Source of the DNA: Parcubacteria group bacterium
GTDB lineage: Bacteria > Patescibacteriota > Minisyncoccia > Phycocordibacterales > Zambryskibacteraceae
Length of the DNA stretch: 64,000 nt
Direction: 5' to 3'
Assembly (NCBI GenBank): GCA_028286565.1
Contig: JAQBRH010000004.1
Coordinates: 33,951-97,950, forward strand
Under the pieces are notes generated by a model, which worked only from the letters and a program-made list of their open reading frames with translations, did no database searches and was not told the DNA's origin. A program made the translations under genes and the position numbers. The stretch's first letter is position 1. Each line of letters starts with the position of its first letter. Below, one piece after another: positions 12,297 through 59,131 of the stretch.

Positions 12297-13409
12297 CTAT
12301 TTGAGGTAGTTCCAGGCGTACGGGTCCATGCCGCCGTCGATCTTGAAGATCGCCACGCCGCGGAGTCCCAGCGATTTGGCCAGATCGACCTTTTGTTTGA
12401 TGGAGTATGCATCCGACCATACGAGCATATTCGTTTTCAGATCGGACCGCACTCCGTTCCATGGGGTCGAACTTGCCTCGGGGTAAAAGGTGAAGGAGAG
12501 CTCCCCGGACGACGTACGGGTCGGCATGAGATTCAAAGGCGCCGCGATCTGAAGAGCGTAGAGAGGATTGAAGGCCCAGAGCCTCTCATATGTATATCCC
12601 CCGACTCCGCCCGGAGTGATCGTATATTCATACCCATAGGTTGGGATCCCGAGGATGATCTTCTTTTTGGAGATCTCCTTGGCGGCAAGGTCGACAACTT
12701 TCTTTACCCACTGGGGATCGGCGATCGGCGCGTAGATCCCGGGATTCGTCTGGTCGAGCTTGAGGTCAACCCGGCCTTGGTCGTAGGCCATGATGCGCAC
12801 CCGGTCGCAGTACTTGTTGATCATCTTGTAGTCGTTCGAGACATCCTTTGCATTATAATCCGCGGGCACCGTGTCGTATCTCGATGTGACGGGAGTCCTC
12901 GATTCTATTTCGCATTGCACCCACTTCTTGCCCATGGCCTTGTAGAGGTCGCGGAGAAAGATCGAATAATAATCCTTGGTCTCGGTCAGCTTCGCTTCGT
13001 AGTCGATGTCCACTCCGTCGAAGCCGTTCGCGTTCACCAGGTTGACGATCTCCTTGATGTGCGCATTGCGAAGGGTTTTGTTCGAGAGCGTCGCATGAAT
13101 GGCCGCTCCGTTCCCCCACATTATGGTCGGGATAATTCGGATCTTTTTTGCCTTGGCATTATTGATGAGCGTGGTCCACGGTTCCGCGCCAAAGTTCGTC
13201 GGATCATAGAGATGTCCGTCAGCGGTAACCGTATAGCCGAAAGGATTGATCTCCTTGAAGGCGTCGAGGTGGGCAAGCGTTTCGGCTGTGCCCGTCGCGC
13301 TTCTCCAATACGGGATCCATCCGGACACCTCGAACGTGCCCGCAGCAAAAGCGCTCGGCACGAAAGAGAAGAATGAAAGGATGATGCACAAAGAGACGAT
13401 TCTTTTCAT
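12297..13409 (-). CDS. Secreted glycoside hydrolase family 18-like protein (chitinase/peptidoglycan hydrolase-like)
   Basis: Signal peptide and the GH18 catalytic motif FDGVDIDYE. Confidence 0.65.
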   Translation of the reverse strand: MKRIVSLCIILSFFSFVPSAFAAGTFEVSGWIPYWRSATGTAETLAHLDAFKEINPFGYTVTADGHLYDPTNFGAEPWTTLINNAKAKKIRIIPTIMWGNGAAIHATLSNKTLRNAHIKEIVNLVNANGFDGVDIDYEAKLTETKDYYSIFLRDLYKAMGKKWVQCEIESRTPVTSRYDTVPADYNAKDVSNDYKMINKYCDRVRIMAYDQGRVDLKLDQTNPGIYAPIADPQWVKKVVDLAAKEISKKKIILGIPTYGYEYTITPGGVGGYTYERLWAFNPLYALQIAAPLNLMPTRTSSGELSFTFYPEASSTPWNGVRSDLKTNMLVWSDAYSIKQKVDLAKSLGLRGVAIFKIDGGMDPYAWNYLK

Positions 13410-13435: not shown

Positions 13436-13954
13436 TTATGCCTTCTTGTATTCGCGTATTTCCTCGGCGTGATACTTTTTGAGGATATCCATCACTCCGC
13501 TCGGATTCATCGAACGAGCGGTGACGAGGATGCCTCCGCGCTTCACTCGCTCTTCGTAGAGAGCCGCATCCTCAGAACTTACCCCGAGGCCGGCGAGCGC
13601 TCCGACGAGACCCCCGGCAACGAGTCCGGTCATCGCTCCGGCCGCGGTTGTGGCAGCCGCTCCGGTCAAACCGAGGGCGGCGGCAAGAGGCCCGGCCACA
13701 AAGAGCGTCCCGAGTCCGGGCAGAATGCCGTTCGCGACCACGAGGCCGGCGATGGCGCCCAAGACCGCGCCCGTGGTAGCTCCGCTCGCTGCGGCATCGC
13801 CGACGTGCGATCCTCCGTCCGCGGTGACGACTACTCCTTCAGAATTGTAGACATACGAGATGTCCGCATCGGCGATGCCGAAGGTCCGAAGCTCATTAAT
13901 GGCCGCTTCGGCGTCAGTCCTGTCTTTAAATACTGCTACTGTTGTTTTTTCCAT
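13436..13954 (-). CDS. General stress protein (YflT/GSP17M-like) with Gly-zipper membrane segment
   Basis: N-terminal TTVAVFKDRTDAEAAINEL motif, then a long G/A-rich glycine-zipper region. Confidence 0.5.
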   Translation of the reverse strand: MEKTTVAVFKDRTDAEAAINELRTFGIADADISYVYNSEGVVVTADGGSHVGDAAASGATTGAVLGAIAGLVVANGILPGLGTLFVAGPLAAALGLTGAAATTAAGAMTGLVAGGLVGALAGLGVSSEDAALYEERVKRGGILVTARSMNPSGVMDILKKYHAEEIREYKKA

Positions 13955-14657: not shown

Positions 14658-15758
14658 TTATTGATATTGGATGAATAATGGGGCGGGCACAAGCTTGAGG
14701 ACTTCCGCCGGGGTGAGAAGGCGGGTCGACGGCGGTTTGAGGTCATTCTTATAGAAAAGTTTGAACCCGGTAAACTGGATCGGCTCCGGATAGACGACCT
14801 GCTGATACGTGTTGATCTTCTTCGCGGCGAATCCCCACCCGTCCATATCGACGACGATCTCGACCTCTGGTAGAGGACGTACGACTTTATAGTTTGTGAC
14901 CATATCTTCGGTAAAACGGTGAATAACAAGAACTTTCGGCGGAAGGTTGTGGGCCCGGACGAGCGTCGCCAGATACTCCGCCGCGTAGTTTATATCCTTC
15001 TCATCCATGGTGCCGATCACCGTCCCCGGTTTTGCTCCGGTCTTCATGGAAAATTCCGGATCAATAGCCAGATGCACTTCGGGCATGGAAAGATACTTCT
15101 CAAGGACCGGAAGTTCGTGCTCGAGGTCCGATAGCCCGACCTGAACATCAAGGATGACGATGCCGTCGACCTTGTGCGCGAGTTCGAGGGCCCGATCGAT
15201 CTGCGAATCGGGCATTCTCAGCCTATATTTCCCGTCCTTTCCGGCGCTTCCTTGGGCGGTGGTGACGATGTAGTCGATGGCGGGCAGGACCGGAGTCTTC
15301 GGATCGGCCTCGTTCCAGCGCGCCATTTCCGCCCTCAGTTTCTCAAGCATGATATCCTCGGGGTATTCTCCGAGTACGCCCATCCCCTTCGAATAAAAGT
15401 TCCCGTAATACGCGACGATGCGCTTGAATGGGAGAATGGCTCCGGCATTCGGATAGACATGAGGCTTCGGACCCCATAAGAGCCTCGTCGAAGTGGCGCT
15501 GGTCGAAGCGACGTTCGAGATCTCTATGAGTTTTTTATCATAGGCGTCCTTGTCGAGCTTGGGAACCGGCTTGACCGCGTCGATAAGCGCCCTGACCGGT
15601 GTCGTGGAAGATACGGCTCCGGGGGTGCCGTATTCGACGGCCAAAAGATCTGAGTAATTAAGAGTATAAATAGATCCGCCGAGGATCGCCAGCGCTCCTC
15701 CCAGGACAAAAAACTTTTTTGGTCCTTTGCTCTTTGTTTTTGAAGATCTTGTAGCCAT
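14658..15758 (-). CDS. Hypothetical exported protein, possible TIM-barrel glycoside-hydrolase-like (DUF4015-like)
   Basis: N-terminal anchor; VILDVQ...AIDPEF pattern. Weak family assignment. Confidence 0.45.
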   Translation of the reverse strand: MATRSSKTKSKGPKKFFVLGGALAILGGSIYTLNYSDLLAVEYGTPGAVSSTTPVRALIDAVKPVPKLDKDAYDKKLIEISNVASTSATSTRLLWGPKPHVYPNAGAILPFKRIVAYYGNFYSKGMGVLGEYPEDIMLEKLRAEMARWNEADPKTPVLPAIDYIVTTAQGSAGKDGKYRLRMPDSQIDRALELAHKVDGIVILDVQVGLSDLEHELPVLEKYLSMPEVHLAIDPEFSMKTGAKPGTVIGTMDEKDINYAAEYLATLVRAHNLPPKVLVIHRFTEDMVTNYKVVRPLPEVEIVVDMDGWGFAAKKINTYQQVVYPEPIQFTGFKLFYKNDLKPPSTRLLTPAEVLKLVPAPLFIQYQ

Positions 15759-15793: not shown

Positions 15794-17716
15794 TCATTCT
15801 TTCTTTAGATAATCCCGCGTGAGAGCGTCGAGGAGGACTTTCGTCTCGATCGTCGCCACTCCCACCACCTTGTCCGCTCCGCCGTAGTAGACATACAGGG
15901 TCTTTCCTTCTTCGACCATCCCGCACGGGAAGACCACCCGATTCACCACTCCCACCTTCTCATATTCTTCCTCAGGCTCAAAGATCGGATCAGATGATCT
16001 CGCGAGGACGATCGTCGGGTCTTCGAGGTCGAGGAGAACGGCACCCACTCGGTATGTATGGTGTTCTTTGGAGATCGCATGATAGAGGAGGAGCCAGCCC
16101 TTTTTTGTCTTAATGGGAGGGCCGGCAATGCCCGTTTTCACCCCGTCCCACATGCCCGGACGCGGCCCGAGGATGCGGATGCATTTGTTGACCTGGTGCT
16201 TTTCGAACTCAAGGCTCGGCAGATAATCCCCGCAGATATCCGTGCCTATGCGGTGAAGCACGAAATATCTGTTCCCCGTCTTCTCCGGCAGGATGCAGCC
16301 GTCCTTGTCGTCAACCGCCAGCGGAGTGATGAGTTCAGGCGTCGTCCAATTAAAATTATTTGAAAGGAAATCCTTTTCGGAAATGGAGGTGGCGGCCACC
16401 CGGGGCGGGCCGATCCCGTCGAACGCCGTGTAGCACATATATATCCGGTCGCCGATCTTCGAGACCCGGGGATCTTCACATCCGGAGTTCCCGCCTTCGA
16501 CCTTCTTCATCTCATACGGCGTACGCGGAGTATAGATAGGATCGGAAAGGCGAGAAGTAATATTGTATCCGTCGAGCGTGGTGGCGAGCCCGATCGTCGA
16601 TGTATTGTCTCCGGCGATAGCCCTATAGAAAAGATATGTGGTCTTTTTGATCTTCAGGGCGCCGGGGTTAAGCACCGCCTGCTCTTCCCACGAATGCTCT
16701 TTGATCGGCGTAAGGATGGGATTTTTGAAGAAACGCTTGAGGTGCCGCGTTGGGGCGAGGTCGGGATGAAGGCTCCCGACGAGGTCGGCCAAGCTCACTT
16801 CAGCCACGCATCCGGTACTGTCCGCCGCTCCGTAATAGATAGAGAGCGTATCCCCTTCGACGGACGCGCCGGACGGGAAAACGATGTTCGAGACCATGCC
16901 TACATGTTCATACGGCTCTTCTGGCACAAGCATCGGACCTTTGGTGCGGCCGATCACGCGGCGAGGGTCATGGAGATCGAGGAGAACCGCCTCGATGCCG
17001 AAGATCTTTTCTTCGGAAAAATAATTCTGCACATGCGAATAGATCATGAGCCATCCGTACTTTGTCTTGATGGGAGAAGCTCCGACCTCGACGTGTTCGG
17101 AATCCAAGCGGCGAAGATCGATCGAATAGGTGTCGATATTCGCCTCAAATCCTTCCCACGACTTCGGGTCCCATACTTCTTCGATCCGATCGAATTGCCT
17201 GATGCACATCTTGGCCGGCGGCGCATCGGTATGAGCCGAGAAGATGACCGTCACCTTGCCGTTGATGGTGTCCGGGAAGAGGCTCATGGCCTTGGCATTA
17301 AAGGGAGTGACGAGGTGGCGCTCGGTGACCGATTCGAGGTCCTTGGATATGGCCACGGCGCATTTGATGCCGCCCGCGCCGAAGGGAAAGGATCCGAGGG
17401 CTGTGTAGAACGTATAATACAAACCCTCAAAGTACGTCGTGCGCGGATCCTCGCAGCCGAACTTTTCCCATTCCTCCTCGGGGGTAATGAACTGTCGATG
17501 ATGGATGTACTGCTTCCCGGATGCTTCGGCGATGCCGATGGTCGATAGCTGCTTTGGCTCTCGGAGCACATCAGGGGTTGAAAGAGCCCGATACAAAAGG
17601 TATTTCTTCCGGCCTTTGACCGCGGGAGTGGGATTGAAGGCGGCTGATCCCTCCCAAAACTGCTCGTGGTTCGGAGTGAGGATCGGATTATGCGCGCTGC
17701 GTTTGACGACGAACAT
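15794..17716 (-). CDS. Glycoside hydrolase family 130-like protein with two tandem GH130/DUF377 beta-propeller domains
   Basis: Two repeats of the NPIL(T)P...AFNP...YLLYRA...EDPR signature. Start overlaps the stop of the upstream gene by 1 nt. Confidence 0.7.
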   Translation of the reverse strand: MFVVKRSAHNPILTPNHEQFWEGSAAFNPTPAVKGRKKYLLYRALSTPDVLREPKQLSTIGIAEASGKQYIHHRQFITPEEEWEKFGCEDPRTTYFEGLYYTFYTALGSFPFGAGGIKCAVAISKDLESVTERHLVTPFNAKAMSLFPDTINGKVTVIFSAHTDAPPAKMCIRQFDRIEEVWDPKSWEGFEANIDTYSIDLRRLDSEHVEVGASPIKTKYGWLMIYSHVQNYFSEEKIFGIEAVLLDLHDPRRVIGRTKGPMLVPEEPYEHVGMVSNIVFPSGASVEGDTLSIYYGAADSTGCVAEVSLADLVGSLHPDLAPTRHLKRFFKNPILTPIKEHSWEEQAVLNPGALKIKKTTYLFYRAIAGDNTSTIGLATTLDGYNITSRLSDPIYTPRTPYEMKKVEGGNSGCEDPRVSKIGDRIYMCYTAFDGIGPPRVAATSISEKDFLSNNFNWTTPELITPLAVDDKDGCILPEKTGNRYFVLHRIGTDICGDYLPSLEFEKHQVNKCIRILGPRPGMWDGVKTGIAGPPIKTKKGWLLLYHAISKEHHTYRVGAVLLDLEDPTIVLARSSDPIFEPEEEYEKVGVVNRVVFPCGMVEEGKTLYVYYGGADKVVGVATIETKVLLDALTRDYLKKE

Positions 17717-18894
17717 TATTTTTTCTTTGTCGTTACTTTTTTCAGTTTTGGTTTGCCTGATCTTCGGAGATCATCGAGGAACGGATCGAGCTTCGCGGCC
17801 GCAACGCACACGACGGTATCTGCTCCTCCATAATACACGAAGAGCCAATCGCGGACGATGACCGCTCCGCACGAATACACCACTCCGGCTTTATGCCCCG
17901 CATTCTCATACCACTCATCGGGCTCAAGGATCGCTTCTCCCGCCTCGGCCAAGACCTTCGTCGGGTCCTTGAGGTCGAGGAGCATCGCGCCGATCTTGTA
18001 TTTGTTCGGGTCTCGGGTATCCATGACGTGGTTCAAGACGAGCCAGCCGTATTCCGTCTTCATCGGCGACGGTCCGACTCCGCGGGGCCATAATCCCTCC
18101 TTGCCCTTTGGGGCCGTCCGATCCCCTGAGATGCTTTTAATGGGTTTTGATTCGCCGAGCGAATCGAGGTCGCGGACGTACTCGATGAGAACCTTGGGTA
18201 CGATGCTGTGGAGAATGGCATATTTGCCTTTGATCTTTTCCGGGAACAGCACCCAGTTCTTATGGATCTCCCCCGGCGGAGAGATAAGGGCGGGGATCTT
18301 CCAATTCCACCGTTCATTCACAAAATCATCAAAGCTGATCGAGGTCAGGGCGATACGAATGGCTCCCCAGCCGTCGAACATGGTGTAGAGCATATAGATC
18401 CTGTCGTCGATCCGAGTGAGGTGCGGATCTTCGCACCCGCCGAGCCCTCCACCCCCGGATGTATACGCGGCCTCGGGCACCGTTTTGTCCGGAGTGACCT
18501 TATGAAAATATACCGGGCGGGAGTTGCGGCTGAAGACCGTAAATCCGTCCTTGGAGACCGCGTGCCCGAGCATGGAAATATCTCCCACCCCGATGGCTCT
18601 GTAGAGAATATGGACCTTGCCGTCCGCGTAGAGGGCGCTCGGGTTGAAAGTGGCTTTTGATTCCCAGTATTGATGGGCGGTCGGAGTGATGATCGGATTC
18701 TCCACGAACTTTTGCAGCGAGCCGGGGGACGTTTTCTTCTTGAGCAGGCTCCGCTTAACGATGAGCTTCGGCTTTCGGACAATTCTGGATCTTAGCTTTG
18801 CTGTAGGGATTTTTTTGGCCGTTTTTTTAGCGACCTTTTTGACAGGTTTTTTCTTTTGGACGATCTTTTTCTTTTGCGGTTTACGTTCGGCCAT
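17716..18894 (-). CDS. GH130/DUF377-like glycosidase/phosphorylase with ~65-aa poly-lysine N-terminal tail
   Basis: NPIITP...FNPSALY...LYRAIG...CEDPH motifs. N-terminus is KKKIVQKKKPVKKVAKKTAKK. Confidence 0.7.
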   Translation of the reverse strand: MAERKPQKKKIVQKKKPVKKVAKKTAKKIPTAKLRSRIVRKPKLIVKRSLLKKKTSPGSLQKFVENPIITPTAHQYWESKATFNPSALYADGKVHILYRAIGVGDISMLGHAVSKDGFTVFSRNSRPVYFHKVTPDKTVPEAAYTSGGGGLGGCEDPHLTRIDDRIYMLYTMFDGWGAIRIALTSISFDDFVNERWNWKIPALISPPGEIHKNWVLFPEKIKGKYAILHSIVPKVLIEYVRDLDSLGESKPIKSISGDRTAPKGKEGLWPRGVGPSPMKTEYGWLVLNHVMDTRDPNKYKIGAMLLDLKDPTKVLAEAGEAILEPDEWYENAGHKAGVVYSCGAVIVRDWLFVYYGGADTVVCVAAAKLDPFLDDLRRSGKPKLKKVTTKKK

Positions 18895-19225
18895 ATTTGT
18901 CTTCGGTTCTGACTATATCCTTCTCATCAAATTGGCCTCGGGCGATCTCCAGAAACTCGACATCGCCGCCGACCGCCGCGATGCGATGCTCGACGTTAGG
19001 CGGAGTTTCAAACTCGTCTCCGGCTTTGGCCATAACCTTCTCCCCTCCGATCGTGACCTCGGGCGTCCCCTTCAATATATGCCAAAACTCTCCGCGATGT
19101 TCGTGGTATTGCAAGCTCAAGGATTCTCCATCTTTTATGAAAATTGTTTTGACCGTCACGGGTTCGTTCTCGGCATATTCTCTGAACTCTCCCCAAGGCC
19201 GCTTTATCGAAAAGGGCTTGTCCAT
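18881..19225 (-). CDS. Cupin-domain protein (mannose-6-phosphate isomerase type II C-terminal-like)
   Basis: Two cupin motifs: G...LQYHEHRGEFWHIL and PPNVEHRI. 14-nt overlap with the downstream GH130 gene. Confidence 0.65.
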   Translation of the reverse strand: MDKPFSIKRPWGEFREYAENEPVTVKTIFIKDGESLSLQYHEHRGEFWHILKGTPEVTIGGEKVMAKAGDEFETPPNVEHRIAAVGGDVEFLEIARGQFDEKDIVRTEDKYGRT

Positions 19226-19252
19226 ATACCTCCAAGTATATCACCGAAGAGG

Positions 19253-20002
19253 TCAAGCGATGAGCTTGCGAATGGTGTCTTTGGTGTCGGAAAGGCCGGG
19301 CTTTTCCTCAGAGGCATAAGGGATGCCAGTGGGGATAACCGATGCGTCATTCCCCCCGGGGAAGAGCGCATCGCCCACAAAGAGAACCTCCTCTTTTGAA
19401 AGCTCGAGATGCTTCATAAGTTCATGGAGGCCAAAGGCCTTGTCTATCCCCTGCCTCGTCACGTCGATCGACGTCGTCCCCCCGATGCTGAGGGCAAAGT
19501 TCGGAAGCTCCCGCTGCAGCACGACCACGAGCGCGCTCCGCTTATGGTGATCCGGATCCCACGAATACTTGAGCTCGTTCGGTGCGTCGCTTCCGAGGGC
19601 CGAGAATGTTATCTGAGTCCCCCTATCCTCGATCTGTACGCCGTAGATCCTTTCGGGCTGAACAAATCCGGTTTCTCTGAAAGCGAGGCCGAAGGCCTCC
19701 ATGATCTTCTGCTTTTCATCTTCACTGAGGGCATATGAGTATACTTCCTTCCACCCTCCTTTATATTCATAGAGCTGGGCCCCCATGGTGGGAAGGAGGT
19801 AGAGATAGCGAAGCTCGTCTTCCGAGGCTCCGAGGGGGTCAATGATGCTTTTTTTAAATTGTTCAAAGGTTCCGCCGGAGATCACCGCCACTCTTTTTTT
19901 GTCGAGAAGCGTGCGAAGGAGCGCCGCCATCTCCGCATCGAGAGGAGACTTGCTCTCGGTGAGCGTCTGGTCTATATCGAACGCGACGAGTTTTGGGGTC
20001 AT
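19253..20002 (-). CDS. Phosphomannomutase, eukaryotic-type (HAD-IIB, PMM family)
   Basis: LVAFDIDQTLT HAD motif I, VISGGTFEQFKK, C-terminal FVGDALFPGGNDASV closely matching the PMM FVGDKTMPGGND signature. Confidence 0.65.
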   Translation of the reverse strand: MTPKLVAFDIDQTLTESKSPLDAEMAALLRTLLDKKRVAVISGGTFEQFKKSIIDPLGASEDELRYLYLLPTMGAQLYEYKGGWKEVYSYALSEDEKQKIMEAFGLAFRETGFVQPERIYGVQIEDRGTQITFSALGSDAPNELKYSWDPDHHKRSALVVVLQRELPNFALSIGGTTSIDVTRQGIDKAFGLHELMKHLELSKEEVLFVGDALFPGGNDASVIPTGIPYASEEKPGLSDTKDTIRKLIA

Positions 20003-20400
20003 TATAGTGTGTTACCCGAGAAAGAGGACGGTTCGGCCGTCCGGCAGTTCTTGTAGTCCTGATCCATAGAATTATCGCGCATGATGATCGCCTCATTGCC
20101 CTTGTTCCAAAAGACAAGCGACTCGTCCGCATTCGCATAGCGCGCCCCGGAAGCGGAGATCGCTTGGGGAAGATAGAGAGTTTTCTGTCCGCCGAATTCC
20201 AGATGGACCGAGCGCGGATAAAACTCCGCAAAGATCTCCCGGCTGTCGCATGTAAACGTCGCGGTGGAGAGAGGAGTACCCAGGATAAACACCGTTTGGA
20301 ACTTTCGGCCGAGCTGAAATCCTACGAGCAATACGGCCACAAAAAGGATAATGGCCATGGCCTGAGAGAGCGGAGTTACCCTGTTCCAGACGATCTTCAT
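20002..20400 (-). CDS. MliC-family (membrane-bound lysozyme inhibitor of C-type lysozyme)-like protein
   Basis: LPQAISASGARY and FWNKGNEAI motifs typical of the MliC family. N-terminal anchor. Start codon overlaps the PMM stop. Confidence 0.55.
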   Translation of the reverse strand: MKIVWNRVTPLSQAMAIILFVAVLLVGFQLGRKFQTVFILGTPLSTATFTCDSREIFAEFYPRSVHLEFGGQKTLYLPQAISASGARYANADESLVFWNKGNEAIIMRDNSMDQDYKNCRTAEPSSFSGNTL

Positions 20401-20402
20401 AC

Positions 20403-20657
20403 CTATAGAATATCACGAGTTCCCCCGACGAATTCGAGCTTCTGGCCCCGGGTCCATCCCTTGATCTCCGCCTCGCGCTTGGAGGCTGAGCTTCTGTTCG
20501 GGTGTTTTTCGGTGTAGAGCAATTTCTTCACTCCTTTCGATCTCGTATAATGGCCGCCCTTCCCGCCTCGGTGTTCCTTGACCCTTCTTTCCACATCGGT
20601 CGTGATGCCCGTGTACAGCGTCCCGTTTTTACATTCTAAAATATAGACAACATACAT
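20403..20657 (-). CDS. GIY-YIG nuclease family protein (UPF0213-like)
   Basis: MYVVYILECKNGTLYTGITTDVERRVKEH...GWTRGQK; start re-placed at ATG 20657. Its 3' end contains the promoter-half of the array repeat. Confidence 0.7.
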   Translation of the reverse strand: MYVVYILECKNGTLYTGITTDVERRVKEHRGGKGGHYTRSKGVKKLLYTEKHPNRSSASKREAEIKGWTRGQKLEFVGGTRDIL

Positions 20658-20697
20658 GTGCTTTTTTGCAACATGACGCAGGACTCGCATAATCTTG

Positions 20698-23736: not shown

Positions 23737-24137
23737 TATACCTTAGGCATTTCAGCTATAAATGCAAACAATTCCCAAATATGACCATTAATATCGCGAA
23801 ATGCTTTTCCATACATAAAAGCTTCAGATTCGGGACTATCCTTTGTTACGTCTACAGCACCGGACGTAGTAGCTTTTTCAAAGAAAGCATCTACTTCACT
23901 CTTTGAATCAAACTGTAATGCAATGGTCAGGTTATTATTGATTGCTTCCGGATTACCTCCGACAAAAGTTGCAAATCGCTTGTCCTCCAACAACATAACA
24001 AAAGTATTTTCGTTGATCTTTGCATTAGTGGTATCTTCACTGCTGAATTGTTCATTCTTCACCATTCCTAGCGATGCAAAGAATGTATCAGTGTCAGCAA
24101 CATTTCTAATCGGCAAGTTAATGTATGTATTTTTCAT
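23736..24137 (-). CDS. VOC/glyoxalase-bleomycin-resistance family protein
   Basis: INLPIRNV...FFASLGM and ...HIWELF VOC-type beta-alpha-beta-beta-beta modules. AT-rich coding sequence. Confidence 0.6.
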   Translation of the reverse strand: MKNTYINLPIRNVADTDTFFASLGMVKNEQFSSEDTTNAKINENTFVMLLEDKRFATFVGGNPEAINNNLTIALQFDSKSEVDAFFEKATTSGAVDVTKDSPESEAFMYGKAFRDINGHIWELFAFIAEMPKV

Positions 24138-24163
24138 ATATAAAAGTATATCAAGAAAACCTC

Positions 24164-24197
24164 CAGCTGGTCCTGTGGGACGAAGGTGGAACCATTC
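24164..24197. repeat. Array repeat R6
   Basis: ccagctggtcctgtgggacgaaggtggaaccatt. Confidence 0.8.
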
Positions 24198-24209
24198 TAG
24201 GGCAGGTCC

Positions 24210-24572
24210 CTATTCCTCAGGTTCATCATTGATACCCAGCTTTGATTGAATAGCTTGTCGTATCCACCACGTCGCATAGGTTGAGAATTTATAATCAGCT
24301 TTATAATCATATTTTTCCACGGCTTTAAAAAGGCCCAGGTTACCATTTTGAATAAGATCCAATTGAGAAACATTCTGCTCGTTGTCTTTGTATGCTTCCG
24401 CAATCTTCGCTACTAATCGCAAATTCCCCTTGGCTAAAAGATTCTTTGCTTCATCATCATTATTTTCCTTAATTCTTTTAGCCAGCTTTTTCTCTTCTTC
24501 ACCGGAAATAAGTAGATATGCTGATATCTCATTAAGGTAATCTTCTAATTTTTCCTGTTCAGTTTTTTCCAT
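24210..24572 (-). CDS. Truncated sigma-70-like protein (regions 1.2-2.4 only; possible fragment or decoy)
   Basis: NLRLVAKIAEAY...LDLIQNGNLGLFKAVEKYDYKADYKFSTYATWWIRQAIQ matches RpoD region 2. Only 120 aa; lacks regions 3-4. Confidence 0.6.
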   Translation of the reverse strand: MEKTEQEKLEDYLNEISAYLLISGEEEKKLAKRIKENNDDEAKNLLAKGNLRLVAKIAEAYKDNEQNVSQLDLIQNGNLGLFKAVEKYDYKADYKFSTYATWWIRQAIQSKLGINDEPEE

Positions 24573-24623
24573 GATATGTATCTAAACGTTTATTCACTAG
24601 GATGCTTTCCCTTTAAAATCATA

Positions 24624-24660
24624 AGAGCCAGCCATGTGGGACGATGTTGGAACCTTTTTT
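24624..24660. repeat. Array repeat R7
   Basis: agagccagccatgtgggacgatgttggaacctttttt. Confidence 0.8.
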
Positions 24661-24662
24661 AA

Positions 24663-25193
24663 CTATTCCTGAGGAAAACCATACTTCTCACGTATTTCCC
24701 TAGTGTATTGCTCTATTGGTTCTAATCCAATCTCTGCCCTTCTTTCGTCAACGTGTTTTTCATCTTCTATAGGCTCAGGTCTGAAGTTTCCATCCCTATC
24801 TCTAAATTGAGTTCCGTAAACCTGTAAACCATGCTCACTTACTCGTATTCGATCTTCTAAGTACGCAACATGTTTTCTATCTACCTCCTCGGGCGATTCT
24901 GCTTTCATAAGTTCAAGACACTTTTTTTGAAAATCTTTATCGTGATCTGCGTGTTGAATTAATAGCCATGCATTACGAACACCTATTGCTCCAACTTTAG
25001 ATGTAGTGGGCCATCCGATTTCAACAACAATTTCCTTTAATCTTTCTGTATTTCTTTTATCAATTTCGTTATCCCAATACTCATCATCTACAAGATTCTT
25101 TTCTCGCATATCTTGGTCTACCTTAACCATTGTTTCTAATTCAGAAGCGATCTCTGGATTAAGCATGACTTTAGGAGTTTCTTCATTATTCAT
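24663..25193 (-). CDS. Hypothetical protein
   Basis: 176 aa, acidic. GWPT...NAWLLIQHADHD motif. No family assigned. Confidence 0.5.
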   Translation of the reverse strand: MNNEETPKVMLNPEIASELETMVKVDQDMREKNLVDDEYWDNEIDKRNTERLKEIVVEIGWPTTSKVGAIGVRNAWLLIQHADHDKDFQKKCLELMKAESPEEVDRKHVAYLEDRIRVSEHGLQVYGTQFRDRDGNFRPEPIEDEKHVDERRAEIGLEPIEQYTREIREKYGFPQE

Positions 25194-25200
25194 ATACCTA

Positions 25201-25246
25201 GAATATCACGAGCTGGGCCCTGGGGTACGAAGCTGGAACCTATTTT
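25201..25246. repeat. Array repeat R8 (promoter-half plus core)
   Basis: gaatatcacgagctgggccctggggtacgaagctggaacctatttt. Confidence 0.85.
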
Positions 25247-25827
25247 ACAGCTATAAAGTGAAAAACATGCCAGTGCTTCGTCTCTCCCGCAGCAGTTTTG
25301 CCATCTTTTTCTTCTTCACTGAACTCCGCAATCTTTAGTCCCTGCAGCAATGACTCCGCCTCTTCTTTAGTCTGAAATGTCATATCTCTACCTTCTACAT
25401 TCCACTCATCTCTATCTCCGAAGAATTGTCCGACAAATACACCGCCTGGTTTTAACGACTTAATAATTGATTGAATAACATCATTAAATTTTCCTTTAGA
25501 AGTAAACGGTAAAGAATACTGAGCGTTAATCAGATCATACGCACCTTCTACAAAATCAAAATCTTCAAAAGAACTTATTTCGTATGTGACTTTTTCGGCG
25601 GGAAGTTGCTCGAGCACTTCTCCAGAGACTGGGTTCTTATCGACAGCTGTAACATGCTCAAATCCTACAGACAAAAGATACCTCGTATCATTAAGTGCCC
25701 CTGATCCAAGATCCAATGCTTCATGTTTGTCTTGAACTAATTCGACAGCGTTAACCAAAGAAGGTCTTGGTGGCGTTTCTTTAGTTTGTTCGTAGTATTG
25801 CTCCCAGTTATGTTCACTCATGGGCAT
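25240..25827 (-). CDS. Class I SAM-dependent methyltransferase (TehB-like)
   Basis: LDLGSGALNDTRYLL motif I, VTAVDKNP, LKPGGVF. Confidence 0.7.
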   Translation of the reverse strand: MPMSEHNWEQYYEQTKETPPRPSLVNAVELVQDKHEALDLGSGALNDTRYLLSVGFEHVTAVDKNPVSGEVLEQLPAEKVTYEISSFEDFDFVEGAYDLINAQYSLPFTSKGKFNDVIQSIIKSLKPGGVFVGQFFGDRDEWNVEGRDMTFQTKEEAESLLQGLKIAEFSEEEKDGKTAAGETKHWHVFHFIAVK

Positions 25828-25837
25828 ATGATATCAG

Positions 25838-25878
25838 AATTTCGCTAGCTGGCCCTGGGATGAGGTTGGAACCTTTAT
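25838..25878. repeat. Array repeat R9
   Basis: gaatttcgctagctggccctgggatgaggttggaacctttat. Confidence 0.8.
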
Positions 25879-26399
25879 ACCGTAACAATCTTCAGATCTG
25901 CCGTATCAATTGTGCCTTTATAGAGAATATGAGGAACCAGATGGAATCCCATGGGGATCATGCCTGCTTCAATAGTTTCCTTATAGTATTCAGTGGTTGC
26001 CTCCGGTAGATAGGCATATTTCTCGACTTCATTCGGATCATAGGCCAGATAATCATCTTCTGGAGGAGGAGTCCCCTTTTCGCGTGGGGAGTTTAAATAC
26101 ACCACAGTCTTTTCTAGCTCTAGCTTTTCTGCAGGGATCTCAACATAACTTAAGGCGAAACCTTTTCCCAACTTCCGCATTTCCCTATCAACAATGCTCG
26201 GATTCAATGCACTCAGATGAAGTACGTCGTTCCACAAACAACCCAGCCTCTTTATTCTTCTTTGCAACAAAATTTCACGGCCTTCGTACTTCTTTACATG
26301 TGCCTGATACGCATCGGGGAAAATGTTTTTAAGCGTATTCAAGGGATATAGTACGGTTCCCTGCATTCCTTTGGGAACTATATGATAGACGAATGCCAT
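25875..26399 (-). CDS. Hypothetical protein
   Basis: 174 aa. No repeat between it and the downstream isochorismatase gene, suggesting a two-gene unit. Confidence 0.5.
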   Translation of the reverse strand: MAFVYHIVPKGMQGTVLYPLNTLKNIFPDAYQAHVKKYEGREILLQRRIKRLGCLWNDVLHLSALNPSIVDREMRKLGKGFALSYVEIPAEKLELEKTVVYLNSPREKGTPPPEDDYLAYDPNEVEKYAYLPEATTEYYKETIEAGMIPMGFHLVPHILYKGTIDTADLKIVTV

Positions 26400-26429
26400 A
26401 TGGGAGTAGTGTAACAGAAATTCGTTTAA

Positions 26430-26936
26430 TCAAAACTTGATCAAGAGATCCGCTGTATTTTCATAAAAAGACGTATGGGCCTTAAACCAGGTCTTATTTT
26501 TACGAGACAACCTTCCCTCCTTGTTGCTTACACTAGCTATAAGACTCTCTGCCGTTGAAACTTTATAGCCTCTTTTCATTGCTCCTATTGCTGTATCCTG
26601 AACGCATGCATTGGCATTAACTCCAATAATAATGAGGTTCTTTATCTTTAGGCTACGAAGAATTTTATCCAGATGGGTTTTTGTGAATCCACTATTGCTC
26701 TCCTTAATGATTATTTCTTCCGCGACTTTGCGAATTAATTTTTCTAATATAGGAGTTGTTCTTCCTCTGTCTTTGCCTCCAGCTTTATACTCAAAAACAA
26801 CCACCGGAATATTTTCTTTTATGCATCTACGAAGGATCTTACCTTGCTCTGCAATTAATTTTTCCTTAATATGAGCAGGAAAATTCTTTAGGAAAAAATC
26901 CTGCATATCCATCACAACGACTGCGGCATTCTTCAT
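26430..26936 (-). CDS. Isochorismatase-family cysteine hydrolase
   Basis: VVVMDMQ, conserved Lys, and the GVNANACV catalytic Cys motif. Confidence 0.7.
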   Translation of the reverse strand: MKNAAVVVMDMQDFFLKNFPAHIKEKLIAEQGKILRRCIKENIPVVVFEYKAGGKDRGRTTPILEKLIRKVAEEIIIKESNSGFTKTHLDKILRSLKIKNLIIIGVNANACVQDTAIGAMKRGYKVSTAESLIASVSNKEGRLSRKNKTWFKAHTSFYENTADLLIKF

Positions 26937-26960
26937 ATTTTAAGTATACCAGCACAAGTT

Positions 26961-27000
26961 TCGCTAGCTGGCCCTGTAGTACGATGTTGGAACCTTTGTA
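26961..27000. repeat. Array repeat R10
   Basis: tcgctagctggccctgtagtacgatgttggaacctttgta; followed (minus strand) by TGGTATACT extended -10 and a leaderless ATG. Confidence 0.8.
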
Positions 27001-27042
27001 GAAAAAGAAAAAGACCGCCTGTAAGCGATCTGCTAGTCAGAA

Positions 27043-27450
27043 TCACAGTCCTCCAAAAACATGGAGACTGTCCTTTCCCGAAGAACCTCTTGGATAGTAT
27101 TCCAGCGTGAACTCCACTGAATCTGGCATGCCTTCTGGAAGATGAGCGATCTGGTTTCCACGATACGGGATACCCCGAAAGAAGATGTTTATGAGCGATG
27201 TCAAAGCGTCAGCGATCTCTTCTTTTGAAAATTGGAAACGCTCTGAGTCAGAGATTTCACGCGGATCAGTTCCCCTCTTTGTTTCCTTCCCTATTACCTC
27301 CGCACTTATTTCAACTTCGAGGATTTCGGGTGGTACAAAGGAAGACCGAGCGATCCTGTAAGGAAAAAATACATGCCCAGTTCTCCTTGCGATGAATTCA
27401 GCAATCGCATCACCGAATTGCTGGGCAGCAATTCTTTCGTAATCAGGCAT
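27043..27450 (-). CDS. Hypothetical protein
   Basis: Start re-placed at ATG 27450 (MPDYERIAAQQ). The listed ORF starts at a TTG. Confidence 0.45.
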   Translation of the reverse strand: MPDYERIAAQQFGDAIAEFIARRTGHVFFPYRIARSSFVPPEILEVEISAEVIGKETKRGTDPREISDSERFQFSKEEIADALTSLINIFFRGIPYRGNQIAHLPEGMPDSVEFTLEYYPRGSSGKDSLHVFGGL

Positions 27451-27527
27451 AACACCTTCCAAGGCAAGATGTGGTCTGTGGTAGAACTTATCTGGTAATT
27501 AAAATACTACTTATTACAGTAAAGTCA

Positions 27528-27562
27528 AGTTGCTGGCCCTGTGGCACGAAGTTGGAACTTAT
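27528..27562. repeat. Array repeat R11
   Basis: agttgctggccctgtggcacgaagttggaacttat; followed (minus strand) by TTGACT-N16-TATTTT promoter-like sequence. Confidence 0.8.
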
Positions 27563-27565
27563 ATA

Positions 27566-27590
27566 AAAACCCAGGATTACCTGGGCGTTG
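27566..27590 (-). terminator. Rho-independent terminator at the 3' end of 27577..27792
   Basis: CCCAGG-ATTA-CCTGGG hairpin followed on the minus strand by TTTTTAT; overlaps the stop codon. Confidence 0.5.
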
Positions 27591-27792
27591 TAGAAGGCGC
27601 TTTGTAATTCGGCTGCGCCTCTGGTAGATCAAGCAGTGTTCTAGCCACAAGGGCACACACAAGAGCACAGAGAACAAATGTAACTCTCGTACTCTTTTGC
27701 TTGAATGTTACTCCCTTCATGAAAAGCAGGAGGGCGAGGAGGCCAAGGATCAAAGAAGCGGCAAGCGGGTGTGCAAACATGTGTTTCTCCAA
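27577..27792 (-). CDS. Hypothetical small membrane protein
   Basis: 71 aa, two hydrophobic helices, RBS GGAGA upstream. Confidence 0.4.
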   Translation of the reverse strand: MEKHMFAHPLAASLILGLLALLLFMKGVTFKQKSTRVTFVLCALVCALVARTLLDLPEAQPNYKAPSTTPR

Positions 27793-27864
27793 AAGATGTG
27801 AAGATTCTACTGCCAGGGGTCGTTTCTGAATATAAATTACAACTAAAAAAGTCTTAAGTCAAAT

Positions 27865-27900
27865 CTGCTGGCCCTGTGGTACGAAGTTGGAACTTTTTAA
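27865..27900. repeat. Array repeat R12
   Basis: ctgctggccctgtggtacgaagttggaactttttaa; followed (minus strand) by TTGACT-N17-TAATTT. Confidence 0.8.
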
Positions 27901-28382
27901 AGCTTCCCTCTTAATTCCAAGGCTCTTTCCATTATCCTTTCGCCTCTCTTCCCCCAATCAAAGTATTGCTTATATTCCTTAGGATCAATAAGTTTTATTT
28001 CTTCTATCTCGTTATCTGGATCTTTCACAAAATCACCATAAGGTTCAACTATACAAACACTCCTTGTCTGCCTAATAATTCTCCCCGGCTCATAAACATC
28101 TTGGAAACCTATTAGCGATTGGCTGAGAACTCGCATATTAGTTTCTTCCCTTACCTCCCGGATCACTGCTTCTTCATATGTTTCTCCTGGCTCTATTCCT
28201 CCGCCTGGCGGCATCCAGCCACTTTTTGGGTGATGGACTACTACCATTTTATCTCCATAGAAACAGAAAGCATGAACCCCTTGGAGCAACTTCCCTTCCA
28301 TATCAAATAACGGGTCTGATTCTTTATATATAATTTCAACTTCCTGACCCAATCTGTTTACATGAATAGATTTAATTTCCAT
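27897..28382 (-). CDS. NUDIX hydrolase
   Basis: NUDIX box GGGIEPGETYEEAVIREVREETNM. Confidence 0.75.
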   Translation of the reverse strand: MEIKSIHVNRLGQEVEIIYKESDPLFDMEGKLLQGVHAFCFYGDKMVVVHHPKSGWMPPGGGIEPGETYEEAVIREVREETNMRVLSQSLIGFQDVYEPGRIIRQTRSVCIVEPYGDFVKDPDNEIEEIKLIDPKEYKQYFDWGKRGERIMERALELRGKL

Positions 28383-28390
28383 CAGTTAAG

Positions 28391-28435
28391 ACTACCACGA
28401 GCTCGCCCTGTGGTACGAAGTTGGAACCTTTTTAC
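28391..28435. repeat. Array repeat R13 (promoter-half plus core)
   Basis: actaccacgagctcgccctgtggtacgaagttggaacctttttac. Confidence 0.85.
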
Positions 28436-28516
28436 AACCTTCTATTATTGACAACATCTAGGACATGATTCATATTGAACCCAGAGTACAACCCAACAAC
28501 GAATAGGAGACAAGAC

Positions 28517-28768
28517 ATGTCGAACGAGAAGTATTTCCGAGATCTGGCACCTGGGGAATTGTTTTCCTTCCAGTCGCCCACTTCCGATCCAGTCGTGGAG
28601 CCGGCCTCATACCTCGTCAAACTGAATGAGGATGAGTATCTGATGGAGCGAGGACATGGAACATTGCGCTTCATGAACTTCGAAAAGTCTCGCACTCTAG
28701 TAGTGAGCCACGGCATGGAAGACCAGGCCAATTTCGAACAGATGCTCGCTGCTTGGCCAAGGGAATAA
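28517..28768 (+). CDS. Hypothetical protein (opposite orientation inside the array)
   Basis: RBS AGGAGA 7 nt before ATG 28517. Preferred over the overlapping minus-strand ORF 28432..28791 on composition and RBS. Confidence 0.4.
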   Translation: MSNEKYFRDLAPGELFSFQSPTSDPVVEPASYLVKLNEDEYLMERGHGTLRFMNFEKSRTLVVSHGMEDQANFEQMLAAWPRE

Positions 28769-28782
28769 TCCCCGGCCCCTAC

Positions 28783-28830
28783 TTCCCACACATTCGCTTA
28801 ATTGAAAGGTGTGGGGATTTTCATAACTAA
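28783..28830. terminator. Bidirectional terminator between convergent genes
   Basis: CCCACAC...(19 nt)...GTGTGGG hairpin followed by GATTTTCAT. Confidence 0.45.
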
Positions 28831-28863
28831 AATAATCGAACGCCTGGTACTAAGTTTTAGAAT

Positions 28864-29367
28864 TTAGAGAACACACTTCCTAAGGACATCTGCAGCAATG
28901 CGACAATCTTCAAGCGCATCGTGCGACCCTCTTGGTTTTGCACCAAAAGCTTGAAAAATATCTTCAGAATTCATCCCTCCCTGGTAGCCGGTTTTAAGTA
29001 GATGAGTGTAAGCGATAGGCCAAATATCCAACACATGATAGTCATACTGTTCTTCTCCATTTCTTGAAGCTGTAAGCGTTCTTAAATGCTTCATGTCGAG
29101 CTCAGCCACAAATGAAGCGATGATCACATTGCTTCCGAATCTTTCAAAGAATTCTTGTCCTACTTCTGCTTGAGATGGAGCACCATTAAGCATCTCTTGA
29201 GTGATGCCGGACTTTACACTTGATCTCCCCTGCAGATTTGCGTGTATATAACTCACAAAAGAATCTTTTTCAGCCAGAGTGTCTTTATCTAGGAGAATGG
29301 CACCTATTTGTTTTGGTGCTCTCATTCCTTCAAAATCTATAACCAAAATATCTTTGGGGAATTTCAT
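28864..29367 (-). CDS. DEDDh-type 3'-5' exonuclease domain protein (RNase T/oligoribonuclease-like)
   Basis: VIDFEG N-terminal acidic motif and a C-terminal HDALEDCR motif. Confidence 0.55.
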   Translation of the reverse strand: MKFPKDILVIDFEGMRAPKQIGAILLDKDTLAEKDSFVSYIHANLQGRSSVKSGITQEMLNGAPSQAEVGQEFFERFGSNVIIASFVAELDMKHLRTLTASRNGEEQYDYHVLDIWPIAYTHLLKTGYQGGMNSEDIFQAFGAKPRGSHDALEDCRIAADVLRKCVL

Positions 29368-29370
29368 ATC

Positions 29371-29420
29371 TCTAGAATATCACGAGCTGGCCCTGTGGGA
29401 CGAAGTTGGAACCTTTTTAG
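29371..29420. repeat. Array repeat R14 (promoter-half plus core)
   Basis: tctagaatatcacgagctggccctgtgggacgaagttggaacctttttag; fills the whole 49-nt stop-to-start gap. Confidence 0.85.
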
Positions 29421-29842
29421 CTGTTTGACTCTTTGAAATCTCCAAATGCTTTACGGATAACGTCAAGTAAGGGCTTCTTATCTGCATAAACATATTCTTT
29501 GCCCACCCTTCGAACGAATTCCTCTGGACCAACTGGCCATCCATAAAATTCTAAGGTCTCTCGATTTTGTGTTAAAAGATGAGAAAGAGTTTCAGGTTCA
29601 TATACAAACAAAGCTCCTTGGGTACCAATTAAAGTTGTGTCTCTATTTGTGAGTAGAACAGGAATTAAGCCATTTTCTTTTGCATGATCAATTTCTTCTT
29701 GAACAGAAATATGAAAATATCTCTCCATAGAATCAACGGGTAAATATCCTACGGATTTGTGAGGGCCGAGATTGCGAATGTGTTCAAGGGCTTCTAACCT
29801 TTCTTTCTCAAATAGATCAGATGCGGTTGGTTCTTGCTCCAT
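29417..29842 (-). CDS. Hypothetical protein
   Basis: 141 aa, AT-rich coding. Last gene of the array before the tRNA-Gln region. Confidence 0.45.
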   Translation of the reverse strand: MEQEPTASDLFEKERLEALEHIRNLGPHKSVGYLPVDSMERYFHISVQEEIDHAKENGLIPVLLTNRDTTLIGTQGALFVYEPETLSHLLTQNRETLEFYGWPVGPEEFVRRVGKEYVYADKKPLLDVIRKAFGDFKESNS

Positions 29843-29859
29843 AGATTAATACTATAACA

Positions 29860-30074
29860 AAGTTCGAGTCCCTATTGGTTGCTGCCGATCAGGGACTCGC
29901 TCCTTACAGGAACAGGACAGAATTCGTCAGGGACTCGGTCACTCATAAAATTCTCCTGAATTTTTGTGCGACCCCGCCTCGGCCCGCCGGCCTCCGGCTT
30001 TCGAGTCCGCGCGACGCTTCGCATGTGCGAAACTGCGCCTGATCGGCAGCAAAACACGCTGCGCTTTCGTTTTG
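29860..30074. repeat. Mosaic of direct and inverted partial copies of the tRNA-Gln 3' end (T-arm/acceptor)
   Basis: 19-nt direct copy gctgccgatcagggactcg at 29881-29899 (identical to 30075-30093). Inverted T-loop fragments at 29862-29873 and 30003-30012. Inverted copy cctgatcggcagcaaaac at 30038-30055 forms an 18-bp hairpin with the tRNA 3' end. Confidence 0.75.
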
Positions 30075-30145
30075 CTGCCGATCAGGGACTCGAACCCCAA
30101 TTAACCGCTCCAGAGGCGGTCGTCCTACCATTAGACGAATCGGCA
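30075..30145 (-). tRNA. tRNA-Gln (anticodon CTG)
   Basis: Hand-folded cloverleaf: acceptor TGCCGAT/ATCGGCA with U1-A72, D-stem GTCT/GGAC, anticodon stem ACCGC/GCGGT with loop CTCTGGA, T-loop TTCGAGT, discriminator G. Four-nt variable loop. Confidence 0.6.
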
Positions 30146-58068: not shown

Positions 58069-58069
58069 T

Positions 58070-58100
58070 CGTCCGAACTTCGGTTCGGCTTTTTTATTTT
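58070..58100. terminator. Bidirectional rho-independent terminator
   Basis: CCGAAC-TTCG-GTTCGG followed by CTTTTTTATTTTT. Confidence 0.65.
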
Positions 58101-58143
58101 TATAAAGAAAAAGACCCGAACATTGTGCTCGGGCCTACGGCGG

Positions 58144-59127: not shown

Positions 59128-59131
59128 AAGT

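Follow-up and report, generated by a model that had tools for sequence, protein, structure and literature searches.

A conserved Parcubacteria gene cluster with three non-equivalent GH130 modules and its proposed role in cytoplasmic beta-1,2-mannoside turnover

A gene cluster in a 64,000-nt stretch of DNA from a Parcubacteria group bacterium (GenBank contig JAQBRH010000004.1, assembly GCA_028286565.1, positions 33,951–97,950; hereafter the window) appears to be a cytoplasmic operon for the turnover of beta-1,2-mannosides that is conserved across Parcubacteria (Paceibacteria). A self-made mannoside pool is favoured as its substrate, and the reading as a whole is given a probability of about one half. 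The cluster consists of five co-oriented genes on the minus strand (Table 1), which encode a protein with a lysozyme-inhibitor-like MliC domain, a hexose-phosphate mutase of the HAD-IIB type, a stand-alone cupin, a GH130 protein with one module (the single protein) and a GH130 protein with two modules in tandem. An earlier, preliminary description of the window had counted three GH130 domains in the cluster. All three were borne out as GH130 by PF04041 and by matches to crystal structures but, judged by their active-site residues, they are not equivalent.

A scan at one genome per species found a relative in 243 genomes, from which 80 loci with flanks were kept. Open reading frames (ORFs) were called in these loci and compared with the window proteins, and synteny was counted in the 66 loci with at least 4.5 kb of upstream sequence. 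The single GH130 gene lay directly upstream of the tandem gene in all 66 loci, and the tandem architecture was present in every related locus whose gene is uninterrupted. Also upstream of the tandem gene were the cupin (48 of 66), a small gene of the cytidylyltransferase fold (42 of 66) and the HAD mutase (35 of 66), while MliC was found in none of the 66. The nearest relative, with a tandem protein 87 % identical to that of the window, has the order GIY-YIG, cupin, GH130, GH130x2 and carries neither MliC nor the mutase at this position. Two long contigs with independent gene calls showed the same order, followed by a gene for a ribosome hibernation factor. These synteny counts and the nearest relative indicate that the functional unit is cupin, GH130 and GH130-GH130, often with the mutase and the nucleotidyltransferase, and that MliC is not part of it. 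The most conserved gene in the cluster is the tandem GH130 gene, with more than 4000 database homologs; the best 120 of these were all ~640 aa long, 59–87 % identical and from Patescibacteria, Parcubacteria or Paceibacterota. Tandem GH130-GH130 proteins have been noted as very rare in CAZy (PMC7660257). As dozens of species-level genomes share this gene order, the cluster is real and well beyond chance. The host with minimal metabolism (candidate phyla radiation, CPR) that the preliminary description had assumed is likewise supported. The window is from a metagenome-assembled genome (MAG) of Parcubacteria, and the best 120 homologs are also from MAGs of Patescibacteria/Parcubacteria.

Downstream of the tandem gene, many relatives carry the ribosome hibernation factor gene (Ribosomal_S30AE) on the same strand (e.g. 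L001:9982-10365 and L003:9963-10361), immediately adjacent in a good number of them. No homolog of this factor was found in the window. The slot is occupied there by a 366-aa protein (14658–15758) with an N-terminal hydrophobic segment and no family matches, which is common only to the window and the nearest relative.

Each of the three GH130 modules matched GH130 crystal structures at E 1e-38 or better, and the modules were 30–38 % identical to one another. The AlphaFold2 (AF2) model of the tandem protein (pLDDT 93.6, pTM 0.90) consists of two five-bladed propellers; its top Foldseek matches were all GH130, with a TM score of 0.89 to Teth514_1788 (PDB 9FJ8). The core of the single protein was modelled with pLDDT >90. 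Residues were compared in an alignment of 82 N-terminal (N) modules, 82 C-terminal (C) modules and 78 single proteins with Teth514_1788 (Teth in residue numbers), the sequence of which was rebuilt from printed PDB alignments, and 120 database homologs of the single protein formed an independent check set. Equivalent residues were UhgbMP R168, Uhgb_MS R202 and Teth R161, and UhgbMP H231 and Teth H214; the correspondence of Uhgb_MS R202/R242, Lin0857 R206/R246 and Teth R161/R195 was derived from spacing in printed alignments.

GH130 enzymes need a proton-donor Asp, and the phosphorylases bind phosphate via an Arg/His pair (PMC7660257), whereas the hydrolases have lost the basic phosphate residues and have a carboxylate base instead (PMC4599007). 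A Glu/Lys pair is the marker of beta-1,2 specificity in the family (PMC7660257, PMC4599007). The phosphate Arg (Uhgb_MS R202) corresponds to the position at which His or Arg separates strict transferases from phosphorylases in GT108 (PMC12814180, PMC10913872). All three module classes had an intact sugar site: the Asn, Arg and Asp that bind mannose, the beta-1,2 Lys and the Glu-Asp pair were invariant. These residues were N28, R43, E89, D90, K142 and D299 in the N module (82/82) and N84, R99, E155, D156, K212 and D359 in the single protein (78/78, and 120/120 database homologs). The reference -1 subsite and proton-donor residues of Teth514_1788 (Asn28, Asp92 and Asp281) are kept in all three modules; in the C module the equivalents of Asn28 and of the proton donor were present in 82/82 and that of Asp281 in 81/82, with one gap. 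The Glu/Lys pair (E89/K142, E414/K471 and E155/K212 in the N module, C module and single protein, respectively) was invariant in all orthologs.

The C module is the only one of the three with the complete phosphate-binding Arg/Lys/His/Arg set. Its ligands R489 (82/82), K527 (79/82), H546 (82/82) and R556 (82/82) correspond to Teth R161, R195, H214 and R223, and they accompany the proton donor D415, the E414/K471 pair and a Gly in the column of the catalytic base Glu268 of the Bacteroides mannosidase BT3780 (82/82). By this canonical signature the C module is a predicted beta-1,2-(oligo)mannoside phosphorylase.

In the N module all four basic ligands are gone, with S/T/A, H, S/A and G at Teth R161, R195, H214 and R223. 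E210 and E242 are invariant and stand at positions with an invariant Gly in phosphorylases. E210 falls in the column of BT3780 Glu268, mutation of which caused the greatest loss of activity and which is regarded as the main catalytic base (PMC4599007). All 82 N modules had Glu in this column, where Gly stood in all 82 C modules and in Teth514_1788 and Gly or Ser in the single proteins. For the GH130_3 reference, two frameshifted genes were found via the BT3780 PDB fragment and their frames were stitched by hand, so that the reference sequences are reconstructions; both genes sit in loci of the yeast-mannan type with GH76, GH125 and GH92 genes. BT3780 numbering was counted from the beta-1,2 Lys and is considered transferable because ten further published residues (N74, R89, E141, D142, E227, E268, Y302, Y338, F344 and D363) landed on the expected letters. 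At the four basic positions the reference GH130_3 hydrolases have G, L, N and A, a pattern similar to that of the N module. These features suggest that the N module is of hydrolase type. Since its overall sequence is nearer to GH130_6 than to that of the GH130_3 enzymes, it probably became so in a GH130_6-like lineage, by parallel change and not by common descent. It most likely cleaves beta-1,2-mannosidic bonds by hydrolysis. D164 of the N module was also considered as a new carboxylate and was dropped, as Teth514_1788 has Asp165 there and the C modules Glu or Asp.

The single protein (PDB 9FJ8 match, E 2e-48) departs from both patterns. At Teth R161 it has S230 in the window and S, N, G or A, never Arg, in 78/78 locus orthologs; among the 120 database homologs the residue was Ser in 84, Gly in 26, Ala in eight and Arg in two (no Arg in 118/120). 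The other three phosphate ligands are kept, the His in 73/78, and the class has its own K335 and, at position 298, a conserved basic residue, which is Arg in 72/78 and Lys in the window protein. Its Glu268 column is Gly or Ser, which differs from the GH130_3 hydrolases, and its switch residue is Ser/Asn/Gly/Ala and not the His of the strict GT108 mannosyltransferases (MTP1/2). The signature is thus that of neither a canonical phosphorylase nor a GH130_3-type hydrolase. The preliminary description had suggested checking the catalytic residues of each domain for phosphorylase versus hydrolase type, and the outcome was one module of predicted phosphorylase type, one of probable hydrolase type and a third that is canonical for neither. 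It is proposed that the single protein is a chain-building or priming enzyme that would use a bulkier phosphorylated donor, e.g. a nucleoside diphosphate-mannose, or else a differently regulated or localised phosphorylase. In the scheme of Ladeveze et al., fewer phosphate contacts and a short L2 loop lead away from efficient phosphorolysis (PMC12814180). Loss of the Arg was not accepted as firm evidence for a strict glycosyltransferase, and the synthase role is a proposal and not a prediction, because Uhgb_MS R202A also loses its transferase activity (PMC12814180).

The single protein also carries an N-terminal poly-lysine tail, with up to 50 % lysine plus arginine (K+R) over a 40-aa stretch, the most basic such stretch among the 73 window ORFs. 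Essentially all locus orthologs have a tail of 29–123 aa, mostly with 30–54 % K+R and ~0–5 % aspartate plus glutamate, the sequence of which is not conserved, and a tail was found in 115 of 118 database homologs (median 51 aa, 41 % K+R). AF2 gave it a pLDDT of ~50 and no secondary structure. There is no internal Met near the start of the GH130 domain and the NCBI annotation shares the same start. Nucleic acid, polyphosphate and anionic membrane are candidates for what the tail binds. A literature search on lysine-rich tails in CPR proteins found nothing relevant.

Variants of the single GH130 gene were also observed. In some lineages a protein of ~630–685 aa takes its place (L014:5081-6994, L029:5104-6996, L050:5101-6990; P0126, P0133). 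Three such loci have an extra N-terminal ~290 aa without GH130 similarity detectable by BLAST, and P0126 consists of the tail, a hybrid module and a phosphorylase-type module, the first module mixing features of the single type and the N type. At L030:3733-5106 the cupin, a lysine-rich linker and the GH130 module lie in one 456-aa ORF, which could reflect a genuine fusion or an error of one base in the assembly, as the genes normally overlap in different frames.

The mutase scored 42.3 bits against PF03332 (cut-off 22.4) and 77.1 against TIGR01484 (cut-off 41.8). Its best solved relative was alpha-phosphoglucomutase PgmH of L. lactis (PDB 4BND; E 1.5e-43, 40 % identity), true phosphomannomutases (PMMs) matching at E 2.8e-17 or weaker. 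The preliminary description's assignment to the eukaryotic-type PMM family is therefore right as to family, and PMM as the activity is suggested by gene context. The motifs FD.DgTL, KA.G and vGD..fpgGND, which include the DxD nucleophile and the GDx4GGND motif IV, were conserved in 39 orthologs; the HAD-IIB fold, the DxD motif and motif IV are common to PgmH and PMM1/PMM2. A literature search yielded no determinants of sugar specificity for the mutase. PgmH belongs to glucose metabolism, whereas the mutase gene of the window stands among mannose-specific neighbours.

The cupin, named in the preliminary description as mannose-6-phosphate-isomerase-like, has the expected domain. It matched only positions 359–467 of TIGR01479 (GMP_PMI), the C-terminal isomerase domain, and scored below the cut-off because that domain alone is present. 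The motifs PWG.F, SLQ.H..R.EFW, H80 and G.FdE.Di.R.eDkYGR, including the metal-ligand motif, were conserved in 57 orthologs. The likeness to AlgA/ManC/XanB (TIGR01479) thus extends to the metal-ligand and D.YGR motifs of their isomerase domain; unlike these enzymes, the window cupin is a stand-alone protein of 114 aa without a nucleotidyltransferase domain. It is a homolog of type II phosphomannose isomerases (PMIs), with that activity predicted. Isolated cupin domains of the PMI/GMP type have rarely been assayed.

The nucleotidyltransferase of the relatives (158–166 aa) lies just upstream of the mutase or the cupin and its ORF often overlaps that of the mutase (e.g. L003:5240-5740 and L001:5951-6427). 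Its best models were RfaE domain II (ADP-manno-heptose synthase; 69–89 bits, cut-off 181) and PDB 3GLV, and no homolog was found in the window. It is a candidate sugar-1-phosphate nucleotidyltransferase, and could be a maker of nucleotide-mannose or an unrelated housekeeping adenylyltransferase.

The mutase, the cupin and the two GH130 proteins have no membrane segment and no signal peptide, their N-termini matching the very start of the catalytic domains. The MliC protein has an N-terminal hydrophobic anchor, and its stop codon overlaps the start of the co-oriented mutase gene. It keeps, by eye, the motifs SxSGAxY (SASGARY) and xWxKGxEA (FWNKGNEA), which we take to be those of the family. The domain assignment made in the preliminary description (PF09864) is sound and the association with the cluster is not conserved; absent from all 66 related loci and from the nearest relative, MliC is a local passenger and not a functional member of the cluster. 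As an observation in its own right, the genome of a member of the Parcubacteria encodes a lysozyme-inhibitor-like protein, which is not tied to mannose genes in any relative. A 95-aa stand-alone protein with a GIY-YIG nuclease domain (20403–20690) ends 3 nt before the MliC start, and four relatives (L005, L006, L011 and L050) likewise have GIY-YIG homologs upstream of the cluster.

From these domain families, gene orders, residue patterns, folds and the lack of export signals we infer the activities, a direction of flux and an origin of the substrate. The C module would cleave beta-1,2-mannosides with phosphate to yield alpha-mannose 1-phosphate (Man-1-P), the mutase would convert this to mannose 6-phosphate (Man-6-P) and the cupin would convert Man-6-P to fructose 6-phosphate, with all three steps expected to be reversible. 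The N module, its phosphate pocket turned acidic, may hydrolyse bonds that the phosphorylase handles poorly; possible targets are the last disaccharide or a primer. The single protein would retain mannose binding in both subsites and protonation of the leaving group, with a reshaped anion pocket. The substrate would be a self-made intracellular pool of beta-1,2-mannooligosaccharides, a mannogen-like reserve. A self-made pool is favoured because environmental beta-1,2-mannans are rare, the cluster encodes no secreted enzyme, neither an importer nor any other transporter nor a secreted glycanase was found conserved with the operon in the related loci, and the operon is retained across many free-water and sediment lineages. 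A more specific form of the proposal is tentative, with the odds well against it: that Parcubacteria make and recycle an intracellular beta-1,2-mannan ('mannogen') as a carbohydrate reserve with a toolkit of GH130 enzymes only, in which the Arg-less, poly-Lys-tailed GH130 would be the synthase or primer (perhaps fed by the RfaE-II-like nucleotidyltransferase), while phosphorolysis would fall to the C module and hydrolytic trimming to the N module.

Several points weigh against beta-1,2-mannoside turnover as the role of the operon. We know of no assayed enzyme from this clade and of no reported beta-1,2-mannan from these bacteria. The mutase is missing from the cluster in about half of the species, the nearest relative among them, and the cupin in about a quarter. 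The mutase is nearest to a phosphoglucomutase, mannose being indicated by gene context only, and PgmH is said to be specific for glucose phosphates. No Man-1-P guanylyltransferase or canonical GDP-mannose pyrophosphorylase was found among the 37 Pfam-screened of the ~73 window ORFs, and no canonical pyrophosphorylase in the conserved cluster. The N module has no evident equivalent of BT3780 Glu227, the column being Pro in a loop of uncertain alignment. As to the single protein, the result with Uhgb_MS R202A means that loss of the Arg alone predicts no synthase (PMC12814180). The preliminary description had suggested that the cluster could feed host- or partner-derived mannosides into GDP-mannose synthesis; the tie between GH130 phosphorolysis and mannose-phosphate metabolism stands, the step to GDP-mannose lacks its canonical enzyme in the genes just named and an external origin is now a rival reading.

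Under that rival, beta-mannosides imported from a host or partner would be phosphorolysed and hydrolysed in the cytoplasm and passed to glycolysis or nucleotide-mannose. Such pure salvage is possible, though on the whole doubtful. CPR bacteria live as scavengers, catabolism needs no more than a phosphorylase, a hydrolase, a mutase and an isomerase, and the closest characterised enzymes are those of Thermoanaerobacter, whose cluster is read as salvage (PMC4264767). However, the ABC importer, GH5 and Man-1-P guanylyltransferase of that cluster (PMC4264767) have no conserved counterpart beside the Parcubacteria genes. Salvage leaves the Arg-less, poly-Lys-tailed third module unexplained. It also sits poorly with the rarity of beta-1,2-mannosides, given that the operon is kept at ~60 % identity in many groundwater, lake and soil lineages.

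The N module and the single protein might instead be pseudoenzymes with a carbohydrate-binding or structural role, replacing the second subunit of a GH130 dimer or regulating the phosphorylase. Such proteins typically arise through loss of phosphate ligands, Teth514_1788 and Uhgb_MS are dimers (PMC12814180) and the pTM of 0.90 suggests a fixed two-propeller body. This is improbable, as neither the proton-donor Asp nor any -1/+1 sugar ligand varies among the N modules (82/82) or the single proteins (78/78 and 120/120). The N module has, moreover, acquired invariant Glu residues, and one of these occupies the column that holds the catalytic base in proven mannosidases; the pattern therefore indicates selection for catalysis and not for binding alone. 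Very improbable is the supply or remodelling of a mannose-containing envelope glycan, with the MliC-like protein as envelope partner; remodelling of such a glycan was an alternative in the preliminary description. PMM and PMI belong to the classic route to activated mannose, and MliC is membrane-anchored and extracytoplasmic, with a stop that overlaps the mutase start. It is nevertheless absent from 66/66 related loci, the enzymes are without export signals, no conserved glycosyltransferase, flippase or lipid-carrier gene was found in the cluster in the related loci, and the phosphate and nucleotide donors of GH130 are found only in the cytoplasm.

Among known systems, all three modules were closest in sequence and structure (E 1e-38 to 1e-54) to the adjacent paralogues Teth514_1788 and Teth514_1789 of Thermoanaerobacter X-514 (9FJ8, 7FIP). 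Like the proteins described here these paralogues have a short L2 loop, the Asp/Asn/Asp mannose site and the Glu/Lys pair, and are cytoplasmic. Both are single-module canonical phosphorylases, whereas in Parcubacteria a canonical, a hydrolase-type and an Arg-less module occur together, two of them fused and one tailed; the partner genes of Thermoanaerobacter are an ABC transporter, GH5, ManC and GT4 (PMC4264767), those of the cluster described here a HAD mutase and a cupin PMI. Like the N module, BT3780 and BACOVA_03624 (GH130_3, Bacteroides) have none of the phosphate-binding basic residues, and they have both the beta-1,2 Lys and a Glu in the Glu268 column. The N module differs in having no clear Glu227, Phe for Tyr302, no signal peptide and fusion to a phosphorylase, and BT3780 belongs to a mannan polysaccharide utilisation locus.

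The mannogen cycle of Leishmania (GT108 MTP1–7) also uses paralogous five-bladed propellers of the same fold and mechanism, in which differences in a phosphate-pocket Arg split synthase-type from phosphorylase-type enzymes and a cytosolic beta-1,2-mannan is linked to Man-1-P and GDP-mannose (PMC10913872). This indicates that paralogous propellers can run a mannan reserve (PMC10913872). The Leishmania enzymes belong to another CAZy family and the likeness is at fold level only (Foldseek to MTP2/MTP4, E ~1e-10, 13–16 % identity), and their switch residue is His where the Parcubacteria single protein has Ser/Asn/Gly/Ala. To our knowledge, the Leishmania set includes no hydrolase-type paralogue.

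The gene layout and domain calls of the preliminary description held: an ORF check placed all five genes on the minus strand, each above its curated Pfam cut-off (26 bits for PF04041), and the domain models supported both the GH130 and the PMM assignment. NCBIfam concurred at family level, with beta-1,2-mannobiose phosphorylase as the best models for the GH130 proteins, under their equivalog cut-offs, and the single protein was 100 % identical to NCBI JWN89_379 from a Parcubacteria MAG. Overlaps had been described at each junction. Read directly, the MliC/mutase and single/tandem GH130 junctions are both TAATG with a 1-nt overlap and the ATG of the single GH130 gene sits 14 nt within the cupin gene, but the mutase and cupin genes, a junction that had not been listed, are separated by a gap of 27 nt. 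A promoter and terminator scan of 14.5–21.5 kb gave nothing exceeding shuffled expectation, and Rfam and tRNA scans found no element inside the cluster.

Table 1. Features of the cluster, numbered from the first nucleotide of the window
Feature	Position	Strand	Length	Support
MliC-domain protein	20002..20400	-	132 aa	PF09864, E 4.9e-15, 55.7 bits (cut-off 22)
HAD-IIB hexose-phosphate mutase	19253..20002	-	249 aa	PF03332 PMM, E 9.9e-11; Hydrolase_3, E 7.4e-11
Stand-alone cupin	18881..19225	-	114 aa	PF01050 MannoseP_isomer, E 5.9e-19, 68.8 bits (cut-off 23.6)
Single-module GH130 protein	17716..18894	-	392 aa	PF04041 Glyco_hydro_130, E 5.4e-36, 124.6 bits
Poly-lysine N-terminal tail of single GH130 protein	18718..18894	-	~59 aa	Lysine-rich composition
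Tandem GH130 protein	15794..17716	-	640 aa	PF04041, E 6.9e-88, 295.1 bits, two stretches
N-terminal GH130 module of tandem protein	16751..17716	-	aa 1-322	PDB 9FJ8, E 2.6e-38
C-terminal GH130 module of tandem protein	15797..16750	-	aa 323-640	PDB 9FJ8, E 8.4e-54; 7FIP, E 4.1e-51

Elsewhere the window includes housekeeping genes, e.g. those for RNase J, NAD-dependent DNA ligase and a GatA-type amidase. The sole other glycoside hydrolase among the 37 Pfam-screened ORFs is a 370-aa GH18 protein with an N-terminal signal-like hydrophobic segment (12297–13409), which adjoins a YflT-type stress protein (13436–13954), the long C-terminal half of which is rich in Gly and Ala. A region of low GC content at 24000–30000 (39–43 % compared with ~53 %) ends beside tRNA-Gln (30074–30145) and resembles an island gained by horizontal transfer. 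Its densely placed small accessory genes share one strand and encode a DUF6624 protein, a methyltransferase, an isochorismatase, a NUDIX protein and an RNase T-type exonuclease. A second low-GC stretch (58000–62000, 37–42 %) encodes a 624-aa TPR protein with an adhesin-E-like C-terminal segment (59132–61006) and a DUF2726 protein (61361–61837).

A literature search found no paper on this operon, and one Microgenomates genome paper merely lists 'two GH130'. The families themselves are already known. What appears to be undescribed in the searched literature is the occurrence of the operon throughout Parcubacteria, the divergence of the phosphate pocket in three directions, the joining of a hydrolase-type and a phosphorylase-type module in one protein and the conserved polycationic tail.

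Parcubacteria are among the most abundant uncultured bacteria of groundwater and sediments and very few metabolic pathways can be recognised in them. Conservation at ~60 % identity across Nomura-, Zambryski-, Lloyd- and Taylorbacteria and many further lineages makes it likely that this gene set is central to their carbon handling. The set also constitutes a natural experiment, in which three paralogous active sites are found next to one another, one with an intact phosphate pocket, one with an acidified pocket and one with a pocket that is partly dismantled, and through which the switch between phosphorylase, hydrolase and transferase in GH130 is directly testable. If the mannogen reading is true, one fold would have been split into a transferase, a phosphorylase and a hydrolase within a single operon, which would be a candidate bacterial counterpart of the Leishmania pathway.

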